Source: a virus
UHGV virus genome: UHGV-0369712
Reading direction: 5' to 3' (one strand)
DNA length: 37,622 bases
Positions 1,213 through 36,324 of this stretch are shown here, piece by piece (the first letter of the stretch is position 1; every line of letters starts with the position of its first letter). The notes under the pieces were generated by a model. That model saw only the letters and a list, made by a program, of their open reading frames with translations. It searched no databases and was not told where the DNA came from. A program made the translations under genes and the position numbers.

Positions 1213-1560
1213 TTACTTATCACATAAATCAAATGCAGCCTTAGTGACATCCCCCAGACTCTTTTTTAACCCTGGGGCGGCATCATTATCTAGCCAAAAT
1301 GGATTATTGTTATCTAACGGTAACGCACCAAATGTTTTACCTTTTATTCGAGCCAAACCTGTAAGTGCATATAACTTATTATCGTCAAAATTCATCACAT
1401 AAGGATTACCATCAAGACACTGTAATTGAACCTCATCAGTATTAAATGGCCATACCCCATTAAAACTCTCACGTTCAATAGTTTTAAAAGGCATTGCGAC
1501 GGCGGAAAAAGAAAACATAGATAAAAAAGTAACTAATAGTTGAACATTTTTTACTTTCAT
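1213..1560 (-). CDS. small secreted protein (N-terminal signal peptide, two Cys), function unknown; lysogen-side accessory gene
   Basis: 115 aa; hydrophobic N-terminus MKVKNVQLLVTFLSMFSFSAVA followed by a polar mature domain; 6 bp upstream of int on the same strand; AT-rich compared with the phage core. Confidence 0.6.
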   Translation of the reverse strand: MKVKNVQLLVTFLSMFSFSAVAMPFKTIERESFNGVWPFNTDEVQLQCLDGNPYVMNFDDNKLYALTGLARIKGKTFGALPLDNNNPFWLDNDAAPGLKKSLGDVTKAAFDLCDK

Positions 1561-1589
1561 ATCATTACCTCAATTTAGCTCAAGTAAGA

Positions 1590-2240
1590 TTACAAATTAA
1601 AAAACGCCCTAGAAATGACACCGCCTACCAAAACCCCTACGCAGATAAAGAATATTATTTCTTTTGGATAAAGTCGGATTAATTCTGAAGCACGAAGTCG
1701 GACTTCTGGTAAGGTCGAACTCTCTGTGTGGCTTGATGCCGATTGTTGCTCTAACCACGACAATGCAGACTGTAACTGAGAACGAGTAAGATCGTTTAAA
1801 CGTCCTGTACCGAAATTGATATGGCAATACCGCAGAAGTTTTTGTCGAAGTCCACAGTCTTCACTGTTACGTAGTAATAAACTTACAAGAGCCTTACAGG
1901 CATCATGATCTTTACATCGCTCAAGCATTGCATGCAGAAAACTCTCCGCTGTTTTATATTGATTTACTGTCATATCATCAATACCAGCTACACCAATCTC
2001 CGCATGTACTTTTTGCCAAATAATAAACGCTTCAGTATTGCTAGCTTCTGCAATAGCAGCAACCAAGCTATTTAGCTCCTTACGCTGAGCCTTAAGCAAA
2101 GGGCGATCGTCATCATCATTATTCGAAGGGATTGCGATATTGACGGTATGAGAACCATCATATCGCTCTATCTGAATATTCTTTTCGTGAAAATCACGCC
2201 CAGCAACGCGATTGTTTGAACCGTTTGAGTTGACGGCCAT
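1590..2240 (-). CDS. C-terminally membrane-anchored protein, function unknown (candidate superinfection-exclusion or abortive-infection factor)
   Basis: 216 aa; single C-terminal hydrophobic segment IIFFICVGVLVGGVI; N-terminus GSNNRVAGRDFHE repeats the motif at the C-terminus of the upstream repressor; co-oriented with repressor and int. Confidence 0.6.
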   Translation of the reverse strand: MAVNSNGSNNRVAGRDFHEKNIQIERYDGSHTVNIAIPSNNDDDDRPLLKAQRKELNSLVAAIAEASNTEAFIIWQKVHAEIGVAGIDDMTVNQYKTAESFLHAMLERCKDHDACKALVSLLLRNSEDCGLRQKLLRYCHINFGTGRLNDLTRSQLQSALSWLEQQSASSHTESSTLPEVRLRASELIRLYPKEIIFFICVGVLVGGVISRAFFNL

Positions 2241-4279: not shown

Positions 4280-4696
4280 ATGAACGCAAAAGAAAAAAAT
4301 ATTATCAATACATTAAAAATAGTGTCAGCAGAGCAAGACAAGCTGTCCAGGGCAGCCCAGAAAGATAATCAACATATGGCAGCGCTTTACGCACTGACCA
4401 TCGCAATAGCCACCTCTGAAGCAGCCAAAATTATTGAGGAACAGAGCAAAGAAATCGACACTCTTAAAACACAGTCAACAGTTGCAGCCATGAATCCGTC
4501 CAGCATTGGACGCCGCATTTACATTCTTGGTTCGGCAATAATGACGCAATACACCATTATTGCCGAACTGCACGGCAAATACCTGATAACGCCTTACCAC
4601 ACAAAAGAGTCAGAGCTTCTGACAAATCTCCGCCTGATAGAACGATCTCAAGCTGTATTCATTGATGACGCGCAACGTGCCGTATTTAACGCATAG
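4280..4696 (+). CDS. hypothetical early protein
   Basis: 138 aa; GGAG RBS 8 nt upstream; coiled-coil-like N-terminus. Confidence 0.55.
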   Translation: MNAKEKNIINTLKIVSAEQDKLSRAAQKDNQHMAALYALTIAIATSEAAKIIEEQSKEIDTLKTQSTVAAMNPSSIGRRIYILGSAIMTQYTIIAELHGKYLITPYHTKESELLTNLRLIERSQAVFIDDAQRAVFNA

Positions 4697-5482: not shown

Positions 5483-5573
5483 GAAGCCAGAACATGCACA
5501 CACAAAAAAACCGCTTGCCATGCCGCAATCGGTCAGGTTACATTTCCGCTGCACCTCATAAAACGGGTGCCGG

Positions 5574-5798
5574 GATTCTCAACCCGATACAGAGCAAAGC
5601 GCATAACCGCGCCAGCGGTTTTTTTGTGCGTACTGTATTGCCACGTCTTTTTCGCGTCAGAATTATGGCGGGGCGTACGGGGCCGACTTCGGTCGGGCCG
5701 GATTCTTTGCTCTCCGGTGTTGAGAACCCTGTACGTCTCGCCACCCCGAGATTCTCAACTCTGGATGGTGAGCTATTTCTATCACCGAGCAAAGAGGC
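5574..5798 (+). promoter_or_regulatory. structured untranslated region: three copies of paired boxes (GATTCTCAAC / GAGCAAAG) in direct and inverted orientation around a terminator and the next gene's RBS
   Basis: Direct unit at 5574-5599, inverted unit at 5705-5726, direct unit at 5750-5794; the inverted unit can pair with either direct unit; the last box overlaps the Shine-Dalgarno (AAAGAGG, 5791-5797) of the ORF starting at 5805. Confidence 0.45.
5605..5627 (+). terminator. rho-independent terminator within the early operon
   Basis: AACCGCGCCAGCGGTTTTTTT: GC stem (CCGC/GCGG) followed by a T7 run. Confidence 0.6.
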
Positions 5799-5804
5799 CA
5801 CACC

Positions 5805-6035
5805 ATGGCAAACCGCAAACAACAGCGCGCATACGCTGCGCGTCGTCACATCCAGACTGAAATCAACCGTAGACTTTTCCGCACATCACGCGTCGCGCAA
5901 ATCATGCACATCAATATGCTGCATGAGCGCAGCCACGCGCTATCGAACATCTATTCCGCCTCTGTTTTCAGCTATCTGGCGGATGATCTGCGCGAGCTGC
6001 AACAACTCTTCCAGCAGCAAAACAAACTCCATTAA
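5805..6035 (+). CDS. small basic protein, function unknown
   Basis: 76 aa, Arg-rich N-terminus (MANRKQQRAYAARRH...); SD 7 nt upstream; sits immediately after the structured region. Confidence 0.5.
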   Translation: MANRKQQRAYAARRHIQTEINRRLFRTSRVAQIMHINMLHERSHALSNIYSASVFSYLADDLRELQQLFQQQNKLH

Positions 6036-6107
6036 TTCCTGTTCCGGGCCTTTCCTGCACCTTGCGGCGGGAGGCCTTCGCACATCTGTAGTAAAGAGAA
6101 TTGCAGC

Positions 6108-6497
6108 ATGATTGACGCTCATGACTTCACAAGATGGGTGCGCACACAGGACACCCGTCTGGCTCCCGTTCTTCAGGGATTATTTGATCTCTACATCCGT
6201 GGTCGTGACAACAGAGCACGCACCACAAAACCGGAGAATGCAGACACCCTTTATTTCACAGTAGACGACTGCTACCGCGTGGACTTCACACCACACGGGC
6301 TGGCGTTGCACTGCCTGACACCACACGGAGAATCACTGCTGGCGTATTACGACTCCCCGGCCTCCGTATTTGCGGCAATGCTGGCGCATCGCACTGCTGG
6401 CGGGTGTGCCTCGCTGAGTGAATACACCGCTGAATTTAACCGCCTTTCTGCCCTGTTCTCGCAGGAGTGGCAGCGCGTGACGGGATACCAGCCATGA
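6108..6497 (+). CDS. hypothetical protein upstream of the replicase
   Basis: 129-aa ORF; stop overlaps the A start (ATGA at 6494). Confidence 0.5.
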   Translation: MIDAHDFTRWVRTQDTRLAPVLQGLFDLYIRGRDNRARTTKPENADTLYFTVDDCYRVDFTPHGLALHCLTPHGESLLAYYDSPASVFAAMLAHRTAGGCASLSEYTAEFNRLSALFSQEWQRVTGYQP

Positions 6498-9277
6498 ATG
6501 AGTTTGCATGGAGCTGGAATGAACCACGGCCAGCCATTGATCCGGCCAGATTTACGGAGCACAGGCAGGAAACTGAAACCGACCTGCAACGCGCCATCCG
6601 TTACTACCTTGAGGCAGACAAAAAGGCTCTGGAAGAACAGGAAGCGAAGGAGGAAGCCTTTTTCGCACAATCCACCGTGGGTAAAAAACTCATGGCATCC
6701 CTTGAGGAAGCCGGACAGCGTGAAAAGCTGGCACAAAGCATCATCAGCAAGCGTCAGGCAACAGAACAAGACCCGGTGGCCCGTGCTTTTGCCACACTGA
6801 AGGTGCTTCCCGTTTATCTGCGTGAACCTCTGAGCCGCCACCTCTCTTTCCTGCGCAAAAAACAGGAAGCCGATCGCCAGAAAGGCAAAAAGAGCTGGCA
6901 GGCTGAACGCTACGCGCGCGGAACCCTGCGCAAAATATTCGAACGTCTGGACCGCACCGATCACCGCTGGCTGACACCGGGTTATCGCTCCCTTGCCGGA
7001 CGCGAACGCCTGGACGATTTGCTTTACCTGCCGCAGCTCAACAAACACCAGATACAGACGCTGGCCACCATGACGGCGGCGATGTTCAGCAGCACCTTCG
7101 AAAAACTCTGCGATGGCTTTGGCGCGACTGATGGCGAACTGACCATGGATGTAACGCTGAAGGCGTATCAGATGCTGGCCCGCATGGCGTTACACCTGCA
7201 CGCCATGCCTCCACATTATGACGCACTGACAACAGACAAAGACCGGAGGAACGAACCGGACACGGAGCTGCTGCCGGGCGCAATCCTTCGCTTGACCTGT
7301 GCGGAATGGTGGAAACGCAAACTGTGGCTGTTACGTTGTGAGTGGCGGGAAGAACAACTCCGCGCCGCCTGTCTGATTTCCAGAAAAACATCCCCCTATC
7401 TGAGCCAGGACGCGTTAAGCGAGTTTCGCGCACAGCGCGAGAAAACACGCGATTTCCTGAAAAGTTTCATGCTGGAAAATGAAGACGGGTTCACGATTGA
7501 TCTCGAGACGGTGTATTACGCGGGAGTAAGTAACCCGGTTCACCGTAAGGCAGAAATGATGGCCACCATGAAGGGACTGGAACTTCTGGCCGAAGCCCGT
7601 GGCGACAGAGCGGTGTTTCTGACCGTCACCTGCCCGTCAAAATACCACGCAACAACGGAGAACGGTCATCCGAACCCCAAATGGAACGGGGCCACCATGC
7701 GCGACTCCAGCGATTACCTGGTTAACACGTTTTTTGCGGCGGTCCGCAAAAAACTGAACCGCGACGGCCTGCGCTGGTATGGCATCCGCACGGTGGAGCC
7801 TCACCATGACGGCACTGTGCACTGGCATATGATGGTCTTTGCACATCCGGACGAGATTGAAACCATCGTGTCCCACGTCTGCGATATTGCCATTCAGGAG
7901 GACCGCCACGAGCTGGGCGATGACATAACTCCGCGTTTTAAGGCGGAGTATGTCGACGGCTCAAAAGGCACACCAACCAGCTACATCGCCACCTACATCG
8001 GAAAGAACCTGGACAGCCGCGCCGTGGATGGCATCGACCCGAAAACGGGCAAGCCACGCGTTGACCACGAAACCGGAAAATCAATGGCCGAGAGCGTGGA
8101 GCGCGCCATCGGCTGGGCGCGCCTTCACCGGGTCCGTCAGTTCCAGTTCTTTGGCATCCCCTCCCGTCAGGTGTGGCGTGAACTGCGCCGCCTTGCCAGC
8201 CAGATGGCACGCAATCCGGAAGGCCCGCAACGGCTGAAAGATGATGCAATGGATGCGGTACTCGCTGCCGCCGATGCCGGGTGTTTTGCCACCTACATTG
8301 AAAAACAGGGTGGCGTACTTGTTCCACGCAAAGACTACCTGATTCGCACCGCCTACGACCTCGCAGATGAGCTGAACGATTACGGCGAACAGAGCGTACA
8401 GATTTACGGGATCTGGTCGCCACTCATCGGGGAATCCTCCCGTGTGTGCACGCATCCGGATAACTGGAAGCTGGTAAGACGTAAACCGGAAACGGAAGAC
8501 AGCGCCCGCGAAAATGGTTTTGACCTTCAGGGCGGCCCTGCCGCCCCTTGGACTCGTGGCAATAACTGTCCCCGTGTACAGGAAACGGACAACAACGGGA
8601 CAGAACAGCAGGAAGAACGGCCAGCACTGTGGCCGCAGCTTCCTGACGGCGTTGATGTGGATGAATGGATGCGCTCACTGAAACGGCACGAACGCCGGGC
8701 GCTGATGCGTTCGCTTCGTGACAAACAGGCAAAAAACAGCAGTGATGAAATGCAGAGCTGGACACAGAGCCGCAAACAGCAGCGGCCTTTGCCTGATAAC
8801 CACGAATTACTCGCTAAAGAATGGCGGGAATCTGCCGAATCTCTCGGCCTGCATATCGGTGAACAGCAGATGCAGCACCTGTTACGAGGCGGCAGTCTGT
8901 ACGTTGACGGCAGCATCATTGCACCGCAGGGATTTGAAATTGTACGCAAACCAGATACCCGACCGGACAGCCGAATCACGCAGCTCTGGCAGCGCCTGAG
9001 CCGTAATCACGGCGTAAACAGCACGGAAATCCGCCATAACCCGATTTCCAGCTATCTGAAACAGCTCGGGGCATCAGACCCTGAAGCCGCTGCACGCCTG
9101 GCATCCACAATTCAGCAGGACCAGAACACCATGAAAACTCCCGTTACCGTGCTTTCTGACATGCTGCGCGCCATCCGTGACGCAGAGCACGCACAGAGAA
9201 TCAATGAAACCACTGAACGCGCACGTCACAAGGCGGGTCTGTTGCAGGACAAAGGCAATAGCGAGAAGAAAAAATAA
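6494..9277 (+). CDS. A: rolling-circle replication initiator (P2 gpA-like HUH endonuclease) with a long C-terminal extension
   Basis: About 930 aa; HUH-type motif VHWHMMVFAH and tyrosine pair SYIATYIGK as in P2/186 A; ATG 6494 preferred over GTG 6467 because of the ATGA coupling; last ~250 aa are low-complexity and R/Q/E-rich. Confidence 0.8.
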   Translation: MNEFAWSWNEPRPAIDPARFTEHRQETETDLQRAIRYYLEADKKALEEQEAKEEAFFAQSTVGKKLMASLEEAGQREKLAQSIISKRQATEQDPVARAFATLKVLPVYLREPLSRHLSFLRKKQEADRQKGKKSWQAERYARGTLRKIFERLDRTDHRWLTPGYRSLAGRERLDDLLYLPQLNKHQIQTLATMTAAMFSSTFEKLCDGFGATDGELTMDVTLKAYQMLARMALHLHAMPPHYDALTTDKDRRNEPDTELLPGAILRLTCAEWWKRKLWLLRCEWREEQLRAACLISRKTSPYLSQDALSEFRAQREKTRDFLKSFMLENEDGFTIDLETVYYAGVSNPVHRKAEMMATMKGLELLAEARGDRAVFLTVTCPSKYHATTENGHPNPKWNGATMRDSSDYLVNTFFAAVRKKLNRDGLRWYGIRTVEPHHDGTVHWHMMVFAHPDEIETIVSHVCDIAIQEDRHELGDDITPRFKAEYVDGSKGTPTSYIATYIGKNLDSRAVDGIDPKTGKPRVDHETGKSMAESVERAIGWARLHRVRQFQFFGIPSRQVWRELRRLASQMARNPEGPQRLKDDAMDAVLAAADAGCFATYIEKQGGVLVPRKDYLIRTAYDLADELNDYGEQSVQIYGIWSPLIGESSRVCTHPDNWKLVRRKPETEDSARENGFDLQGGPAAPWTRGNNCPRVQETDNNGTEQQEERPALWPQLPDGVDVDEWMRSLKRHERRALMRSLRDKQAKNSSDEMQSWTQSRKQQRPLPDNHELLAKEWRESAESLGLHIGEQQMQHLLRGGSLYVDGSIIAPQGFEIVRKPDTRPDSRITQLWQRLSRNHGVNSTEIRHNPISSYLKQLGASDPEAAARLASTIQQDQNTMKTPVTVLSDMLRAIRDAEHAQRINETTERARHKAGLLQDKGNSEKKK

Positions 9278-36063: not shown

Positions 36064-36324
36064 ATGTTCCGTTGTCCGCTTTGTGGCGCATCTGCCCGTA
36101 TCCGCACCAGTCGTCCGGAAAATGATTCAAACACCGTGCGGCAAAAGTATTACCAGTGTAACAATCTGGAATGCGGCGTATGCTTCTCAACACTGGAAGC
36201 TTTCCATAAATTCACATCAAAACACGCCTCCGGCGTTCACTCTTCAGAAGGTATCCCGTGGCATGAGCTGCCAGCTTCACACAGGGGAAACAATCAGATG
36301 AGTTTGCCTTTATCTCAGAATTAA
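36064..36324 (+). CDS. ogr: late transcription activator, Ogr/Delta zinc-finger family
   Basis: 86 aa; MFRCPLCGASARIRTSR...YYQCNNLECG gives the C-x2-C...C-x4-C zinc finger characteristic of P2 Ogr / 186 B. Confidence 0.85.
   Translation: MFRCPLCGASARIRTSRPENDSNTVRQKYYQCNNLECGVCFSTLEAFHKFTSKHASGVHSSEGIPWHELPASHRGNNQMSLPLSQN

Follow-up and report, generated by a model that had tools for sequence, protein, structure and literature searches.

The question raised by this locus is what kind of device is formed by two short sequence boxes which recur three times within a few hundred nucleotides of a viral genome, first as a direct unit ahead of an intrinsic terminator, then in inverted and compact form, and finally as a second direct unit that reaches into the ribosome binding site of a gene shortly before the replicase. 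The stretch of DNA analysed (the window, 37,622 nucleotides, virus genome UHGV-0369712) is, as judged from its sequence, a P2-like E. coli prophage of the P88-like/Xuanwuvirus type. In a preliminary description the boxes were put forward as a candidate RNA switch resembling an attenuator or translational-control element. The part of this reading which invokes RNA control with occlusion of a Shine-Dalgarno sequence was retained, whereas the idea of a new switch was given up, as Rfam assigns the region to the C4 and isrK families. With high confidence, the region represents the C4/CI-type antisense-RNA immunity module of a P88-like prophage, a device already known from the phages P1 and P4 and covered by a curated family, and the earlier reading is correct in substance without describing anything new; the C4/isrK tandem is already annotated in at least one related phage record.

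The positions of boxes, terminator, Shine-Dalgarno sequence and start codon given earlier were reproduced and are listed here together with the complementary parts of each box, whereby a1 and b1 denote the upstream copies, a' and b' the middle ones and a2 and b2 the downstream ones:

5574-5583 and 5592-5599, plus strand: first direct unit, GATTCTCAAC and GAGCAAAG, from sequence inspection
5705-5712 and 5719-5726, plus strand: inverted (middle) unit, CTTTGCTC and GTTGAGAA
5750-5759 and 5787-5794, plus strand: second direct unit, GATTCTCAAC and GAGCAAAG
5576-5583, plus strand: box a1, TTCTCAAC, complement of a', with which it covaries (38 sequences)
5591-5599, plus strand: box b1, AGAGCAAAG, complement of b', the helix being 100% paired with six of nine pairs compensatory
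5605-5620, plus strand: stem of the intrinsic terminator, followed by seven T to 5625-5627
5704-5713, plus strand: box b', TCTTTGCTCT, in the loop of C4 hairpin 2, partner of b1 and b2
5719-5726, plus strand: box a', GTTGAGAA, in a single-stranded C4 junction, partner of a1 and a2
5752-5759, plus strand: box a2, TTCTCAAC, target site 4 nt past the C4 match, positioned as the annotated a2 of P1
5787-5795, plus strand: box b2, GAGCAAAGA, target site overlapping the Shine-Dalgarno sequence, with the ATG 9 nt past the box
5792-5797, plus strand: Shine-Dalgarno sequence AAGAGG, seven bases 5' of the ATG at 5805

A box length of 8-10 nt had been proposed, which fits box B, where complementarity covers 9 nt both upstream (AGAGCAAAG/CTTTGCTCT) and downstream (GAGCAAAGA/TCTTTGCTC), but is too generous for box A, of which just 8 contiguous nt (TTCTCAAC/GTTGAGAA) are complementary. 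The arrangement is not expected by chance: when the 62-nt flanks were subjected to 3000 dinucleotide-preserving shuffles and complements of at least 8 nt were demanded for both boxes, no shuffle qualified upstream, a single one downstream and none on both sides at once, while the longest complements found downstream sum to 17 nt as compared to 9.5 +/- 1.3 nt in the shuffled flanks. At the level of the boxes, duplex energies of -14.3 (b'/b2), -10.2 (a'/a2), -12.5 (b'/b1) and -12.2 kcal/mol (a'/a1) were obtained, these values being preferred as RNAduplex returned uninformative full-length duplexes when applied to the whole RNAs. A search for box copies across the window revealed no second target combining a and b; the copies found elsewhere, TTCTCAAC at 36184 and GAGCAAAG at 4444, are single and unpaired.

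The identity of the region became apparent when the whole window was scanned against Rfam at gathering thresholds, as this yielded two matches, isrK and C4, both full length and both falling onto the region of the boxes, with a candidate promoter directly in front:

5515-5544, plus strand: predicted sigma-70 promoter, TTGCCA, 18-nt spacer, TACATT (consensus scan)
5551-5625, plus strand: IsrK-like small RNA, equivalent of the P4 seqA RNA (Rfam RF01394, 62.8 bits)
5661-5748, plus strand: C4/CI-type antisense RNA gene (Rfam RF01695, 78.5 bits)

The C4 match exceeds its gathering threshold of 45 bits, includes model positions 1-87 of 87 and has an E-value of 6.5e-14. Its fold consists of a 17-bp closing stem around two hairpins, whereby the minimum free energy structure (-47.6 kcal/mol, z = -4.9) equals the family fold, and 15 of the 27 pairs were found to be compensatory among 16 phages. 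The middle unit is more than a switch strand, being provided by the exposed, unpaired parts of this structured RNA: b' resides in the 10-12-nt loop of hairpin 2, and a' is the 8-nt junction preceding the closing stem. In P1, P7 and P4, the C4-type RNA is processed from the transcript and serves as a trans-acting immunity repressor, the processing to approximately 77-80 nt involving RNase P and PNPase. Aligned to the model, the annotated c4 of P1 predicts the ends of a mature C4 of 79 nt for the present locus (5667-5745). Cofolding of this mature C4 with the leader was just -1.7 kcal/mol better than the separate folds and, because of this low gain, loop-loop kissing rather than a full duplex must be assumed.

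The isrK match (gathering threshold 50 bits, model positions 1-77 of 77) is located on the same strand, separated from C4 by a gap of 35 nt, and is laid out as hairpin 1 (5551-5570), hairpin 2 (5571-5586) and terminator (5605-5625), whereby box a1 is found in the loop of hairpin 2 and box b1 in the single-stranded linker preceding the terminator; seven of the 16 pairs of the consensus fold covary. The intrinsic terminator is placed upstream of the middle unit and, by analogy to the family, would be the 3' end of the IsrK-like RNA rather than the attenuator. The predicted promoter ends 6-7 nt before the isrK start, so that transcription is expected to begin at about 5551, the first isrK base. 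A -35/-10 pair at equal distance from isrK was identified in all types examined, i.e., in P88-like, lambdoid, N15, Yersinia and Klebsiella phages and in P4, where the pair coincides with the position of PLE.

Whether the boxes function by pairing with each other was addressed by comparison of relatives. Using the 76-aa protein encoded downstream as bait, 83 further P88-like loci were collected, the comparative set coming from viral contigs, as genome contigs gave just three loci with this bait, and their alignment comprises 38 distinct versions of the 263-nt module. Across these, differences accumulate in the six boxes, while the scaffold hardly varies. For the upstream pairing (a1:a' and b1:b'), 96.3% of the cells are paired and 10 of 17 pairs are compensatory, giving a score of 0.675, as compared to at most 0.18 when the partners were slid by 1-3 columns; for the downstream pairing (b':b2 and a':a2) the respective values are 95.0%, 9 of 17 and 0.655, again with a maximum of 0.18 for slid partners, and in neither case was the observed score reached by any of 500 shuffles. 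Six a-types and 12 b-types reassort freely into 16 combinations (one box type from other P88-like phages being CTGTAGTTG/GTGGAAA), whereby the three sites always match. G-U wobbles are tolerated: one b':b2 pair is UG in 10 sequences, and another is GU or UG in two. Thus the covariation in related prophages, which had been named as a check in the preliminary description, was found, and it argues for RNA-RNA pairing as the way in which the boxes act.

The same principle extends beyond the P88-like phages. For a set of 29 loci (P88-like, lambdoid/Stx, N15, Yersinia and Klebsiella phages and P4), boxes were located at C4 positions of about 44-54 and 57-67, and adding up the two best complementary stretches gives on average 15.4 nt inside a locus as compared to 5.5 nt between loci; the automatic complement search also recovers the annotated box sites of P1. 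Box b2 adjoins the Shine-Dalgarno sequence, at a distance of 9-11 nt from the start codon, in almost every homologue, P1 and P4 included. When 16 related phage loci were scanned with Rfam, C4 was identified in all 16 and isrK directly upstream of it in 14. A further family, RF03163 (a1, b1 targets of C4), was matched by P1, where it replaces the isrK match, and by Klebsiella phage NAR688; for F004, the isrK and C4 pair was taken from the record's own annotation. At the level of the sequence, the analysis hence demonstrates membership in the C4 and isrK families, coevolving partners and one pairing that covers the Shine-Dalgarno sequence of the ORF starting at 5805 (b2, 5787-5795, overlapping AAGAGG at 5792-5797), the latter as had been claimed.

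The explanation that competes best with an antisense RNA is a purely cis-acting attenuator or RNA switch, in which the nascent transcript would toggle between middle:upstream and middle:downstream pairing and thereby set termination at 5605-5625 and access to the Shine-Dalgarno sequence, no processed RNA acting in trans being required. Mutually exclusive cis pairings of this kind, as put forward in the preliminary description, are thermodynamically plausible, as three alternative folds of the unprocessed RNA (5551-5830) lie within about 2 kcal/mol: the unconstrained minimum of -109.6 kcal/mol uses b':b2 and a':a2 and covers the Shine-Dalgarno sequence, the fold with the middle unit inside the C4 cloverleaf amounts to -108.5 kcal/mol, and that with the middle unit paired to the upstream unit to -107.6 kcal/mol. 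Moreover, experiments on the isrK-orf45 RNA of Gifsy-1 demonstrated two conformers, A and B (PMC4825925). However, the middle unit follows the terminator and because of this is unable to govern it co-transcriptionally. Furthermore, the middle unit is embedded in a closing stem of 17 bp which has tRNA-like ends and is conserved in P1, P4, N15 and lambdoid phages; a stem of this kind is required if a processed RNA is to be stable, but not if the strand is to act as a switch, and the RNA of P1, P7 and P4 is established to act in trans and to define immunity. Taken together, a device working exclusively in cis is considered improbable. A ligand-sensing riboswitch or leader-peptide attenuator was rejected as a candidate, Rfam finding isrK and C4 and the terminator preceding the supposed switch strand; across the whole window no riboswitch or leader family was matched in Rfam.

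A further possibility, namely that the module is a decayed remnant without function in the prophage, has very little to recommend it, given that all six boxes are perfectly matched and coevolve, that both RNAs are full length, that promoter and Shine-Dalgarno geometry are intact and that the segment 5400-6100 is widespread, having a match in 1293 of 5426 complete E. coli genomes, with at least 80% of the segment present in 1093 of those. Least credible is the suggestion that the boxes are double-stranded DNA sites for a sequence-specific protein (operator or iteron), the direct and inverted copies being one site in two orientations. Three occurrences of the same sequence, in either orientation, would be expected of such a site as well, and perfect Watson-Crick covariation taken by itself is compatible with both readings, but G-U variants are tolerated where DNA sites would differ, the boxes coincide exactly with the unpaired loop and junction of C4 and the loop and linker of isrK, no covarying DNA-binding gene was identified adjacent to the 16 box combinations, b2 is fixed relative to the Shine-Dalgarno sequence in homologues, and P1 genetics, according to the annotation of the P1 record, assigns the boxes to RNA pairing.

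For the preferred reading as an antisense-RNA immunity module, the genomic surroundings are informative. At its left end, the prophage carries an integrase and an HTH repressor on the minus strand, followed by a long early operon on the plus strand, in which the RNA module succeeds a MarR-like and an Ead-like gene; this location lies inside the early operon that is repressed by C in P2-like phages, the prophage's C-type repressor being encoded at 2256-2660 on the minus strand. Downstream of the module the following genes are found:

5805-6035, plus strand: epsilon-like gene, the first regulated gene, 76 aa (Pfam PF25738, 'Derepression' family, 29.0 bits, cut-off 27)
6108-6497, plus strand: ORF129, 129 codons, with ATGA overlaps to the ORF205 stop (6108-6111) and to the gpA ATG (6494-6497)
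6494-9277, plus strand: P2 gpA-type replication initiator (Pfam PF05840, E = 4.9e-129), its ATG at 6494 being chosen from the ATGA overlap

The 76-aa protein shares 31% identity over 51 aa with P4 epsilon (BLASTP, E = 2e-8), and its reading frame has a pN/pS of 0.28. For ORF129, neither a Pfam nor an NCBIfam match was obtained, and comparison with P4 orf151 revealed no similarity. The stretch 5800-5960 is rich in C and poor in G (C>G skew), which is compatible with a rut site.

Based on the characterized relatives, the following sequence of events may be suggested. A transcript from the module promoter would end at the IsrK terminator or else continue into C4, which, by analogy to P1 c4, P4 CI and Gifsy-1 IsrK, would be cut from the transcript to about 79 nt. 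The a' and b' loops of C4 would then kiss a2 and b2, and ribosome binding at the epsilon-like gene would be blocked, whereupon the untranslated RNA would be terminated by Rho; in the characterized homologues, it is Rho that brings about the regulated termination once translation is blocked. As a consequence, the epsilon-like protein, ORF129 and the gpA replicase would be off in the lysogen and likewise in a superinfecting phage that carries identical boxes, with immunity specificity presumably set by the box sequences. The earlier proposal that the element gates the genes just before the replicase would, by this analogy, be borne out. The IsrK-like RNA may act as a decoy that carries the copies a1 and b1 and competes for C4 in cis or in trans, thereby tuning or relieving repression. 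In the P1 GenBank record a1 and b1 are labelled as 'putative' targets; in P4, seqA is required to establish immunity, and for Gifsy-1 IsrK was reported to act as an activator (PMC4825925).

The module is overlapped by a further open reading frame:

5494-6111, plus strand: ORF205, 205 codons, hypothetical Eta-like overlapping ORF (open-frame conservation)

ORF205 starts 21 nt upstream of the -35 hexamer and spans isrK, C4, the target sites and the whole epsilon-like gene, with respect to which it occupies the +1 frame. Of 57 distinct P88-like contexts, 56 leave it open, and an ATG is kept in place across several unrelated upstream contexts. Among the variable boxes, no stop-bearing variant occurs in the ORF205 frame, as compared to 12 and 14 distinct ones in the remaining two frames. 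Likewise, within the epsilon gene one stop-creating substitution was observed in this frame with 5.6 expected, as opposed to seven observed with 5.1 expected in the third frame. Over the same gene the pN/pS of ORF205 is 1.54, as compared to 0.28 for the epsilon frame, and its amino-acid sequence is not conserved there; because it appears unconstrained (pN/pS 1.5), it is only the openness of ORF205 that would be under selection.

The frame used corresponds to that of P4 eta and of the long antirepressor ORF of PhiR49_2 (as in some lambdoid phages), although the Pfam family PF10554 (Phage_ASH) gives just 19.3 bits for ORF205, below the cut-off of 26, while the P4 ORF over cI scores 59.7 bits. 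As in eta, there is a long ORF that begins upstream of the promoter, remains open and runs across the RNA genes; the nesting seen with kil, which as first regulated ORF lies in frame within eta, has no counterpart, the ATG at 5805 being in another frame. Forti et al. reportedly found in 1999 that P4 transcripts escape immunity when eta is translated from the upstream promoter. Tentatively, and with somewhat less than even confidence, we suggest that ORF205 is an Eta-like 'ribosome bridge' of P88-like P2-type phages: its start codon would be present exclusively on transcripts from the early promoter, ribosomes would cross the IsrK terminator, C4, the boxes and the epsilon-like gene and, via the ATGA overlaps which chain ORF205 to ORF129 (6108-6111) and ORF129 to gpA (6494-6497), pass on to the latter two genes, such that lytic transcripts would be immune to the RNA repressor while those from the module promoter would be repressed. 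Unlike P4 eta/kil, such a bridge would be out of frame with the regulated gene and solely its openness would be selected. The observation of ORF205 may be new.

Several consequences follow from the assignment. Recognition of the C4/isrK module averts a false call of a new riboswitch, and it explains the spurious or pseudo 'Ash family' proteins that annotation pipelines have placed there. For a widespread P2-like prophage family of E. coli, the module amounts to an RNA immunity layer in the style of P1 and P4 within the early operon, preceding an epsilon-like antirepressor candidate and the replicase. Its coevolving specificity types, at least 16 in number, constitute a natural set of orthogonal pairs of RNA repressor and target, and the diversity of the boxes may matter for the cross-talk of P2-like helpers with P4-like satellites.

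Among the known systems, that of the lambdoid Salmonella phage Gifsy-1 (isrK - orf45/STnc1160 - anrP) likewise has a tandem of isrK and a C4-like processed RNA before an antirepressor-type gene (PMC4825925), albeit with other cargo. For this locus, read-through of the isrK terminator and alternative cis structures controlling access to the ribosome binding site were reported, and IsrK was found to act in trans on the C4 region; binding of Hfq and activation in trans of downstream translation are known just for Gifsy-1 (PMC4825925). The C4 region of Gifsy-1 was there treated as the coding region orf45, translationally coupled to anrP (PMC4825925), a short coupling ORF which is needless in the present locus, as the epsilon-like gene has its own Shine-Dalgarno sequence. 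The anti-immunity locus of the linear plasmid-prophage N15 also has the isrK and C4 tandem, whereby its a' box, GTTGAGAA, is identical to that of the window, while b box and cargo differ. In N15, a small processed RNA controls the antirepressor.

With the immI region of P1/P7 (c4 - icd - ant), the present locus shares the three-helix RNA fold with b' and a' at identical model positions. The order annotated in the P1 record (a1, b1, 77-nt c4, a2, b2, icd) equals that found here, including the spacing: a2 starts 3-4 nt past the RNA, and b2 overlaps the Shine-Dalgarno sequence, its end being placed some 10 nt 5' of the start codon. In both cases the module has its own promoter, which is a predicted one here, and by analogy to the heteroimmunity of P1 and P7 the box sequence would set immunity specificity. 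As compared to P1, which has an a1b1 motif, the upstream targets here are part of an isrK-type RNA with an intrinsic terminator, the cargo consists of the epsilon-like gene, ORF129 and gpA instead of icd and ant, and the host phage is P2-like rather than P1-like.

The immunity region of the satellite phage P4 is ordered PLE - seqA - cI (CI RNA, seqB) - seqC - kil/eta - epsilon - alpha, and the gene order described here (isrK, C4, epsilon-like gene, ORF, replicase) parallels this left operon. Rfam matches fall on both P4 regions, the isrK-type seqA RNA and the C4-type CI RNA; the equivalence of seqA/CI and isrK/C4 has been stated explicitly (PMC3632133, PMC10111431), and P4 immunity acts through premature termination (PMC4825925, PMC3632133, PMC10111431), as would that of the present locus. 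Common to both operons are furthermore an epsilon homologue, a replication gene in last position and a long ORF which, starting upstream of the promoter, crosses the RNA genes in the same frame. They differ in the first regulated ORF, which in P4 is kil, in frame within eta and followed by epsilon, whereas here the epsilon-like gene comes first and does not share the frame of the long ORF. The spacer between isrK and C4 is 35 nt here and about 107 nt in P4, and the replicase is the rolling-circle initiator gpA here, as compared to the primase-helicase alpha of P4.

Several further features were noted in and around the RNA module:
5494-6111, plus strand: ORF205, a hypothetical ORF of 205 codons, which runs across the module from its promoter through isrK, C4 and the target boxes, and also spans the complete epsilon-like gene, in a frame other than that of the latter
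5498-5518 and 5611-5631: 21-nt inverted repeat with 90% complementary arms
5638-5666, plus strand: second promoter-like site, with TTGCCA and AATTAT spaced by 17 nt
5539-5826: Ash-type translation overlapping the RNA genes

ORF205 is joined to ORF129 by an ATGA stop/start overlap at 6108-6111, and ORF129 is joined in the same way to the gpA replicase gene at 6494-6497. As these two overlaps chain the three ORFs, translational coupling from ORF205 via ORF129 to gpA is suggested, whereby the epsilon-like gene would be bypassed. Among 57 related contexts, 56 leave the reading frame of ORF205 uninterrupted, but its protein sequence is without conservation across the epsilon overlap. ORF205 may be an analogue of eta, the overlapping ORF of satellite phage P4.

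At the RNA level, the upstream arm of the inverted repeat lies directly before the module promoter, and the downstream arm is made up of the 3' half of the IsrK terminator together with its U-tract. The related locus L070 has A6 and T6 runs in place of A7 and T7, each shorter by one base. On transcripts coming from the upstream early promoter, the repeat could act as an antiterminator. The -10 hexamer of the second promoter-like site is the conserved AATTAT leader immediately preceding the predicted mature C4 5' end; this site could be an internal promoter or simply a conserved processing context.

What Pfam groups as Phage_ASH, and what PGAP annotates as 'similar to ash family protein', corresponds to translated isrK-C4 DNA. 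Further such translations overlapping the RNA genes are:
6095-6355 in the related locus L002
8168-8584, minus strand, in P4 (L015)
'Ash' or 'cI' proteins annotated over these RNA genes may be artefacts, in part or wholly.

As to box specificity, the related locus L034 (IMGVR_UViG_2582580934_000004) carries, some 100-140 nt before the gene that lies at 397, a C4 gene with a duplicated hairpin-2 loop, which holds both the window-type b' box CTTTGCTC and the ST131-type b' box CTTGTGTAG; this is either a dual-specificity recombinant or an assembly chimera at the contig end. The a' box GTTGAGAA (5719-5726 in the window) also occurs in phage N15 (L007) and in several P88-like phages with differing b boxes (loci L019, L044 and L072). 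As N15 and P88-like phages have this box in common, it is conceivable that unrelated phages would be partially cross-reactive.

Two further regions set the window apart from P88:
9458-10579, plus strand: protein of 373 aa containing an AAA ATPase domain, directly 3' of the replicase gene
1213-2240, minus strand: two ORFs between integrase and repressor, of 115 aa (DUF2511) and of 216 aa (without family)
The two ORFs are probably moron or hotspot cargo; P88 has no gene at this position. The 373-aa protein, which gives weak HTH matches below the Pfam cut-offs at its C-terminus, may be variable cargo or a defence gene; P88 possesses ParM-like partition genes in its place.
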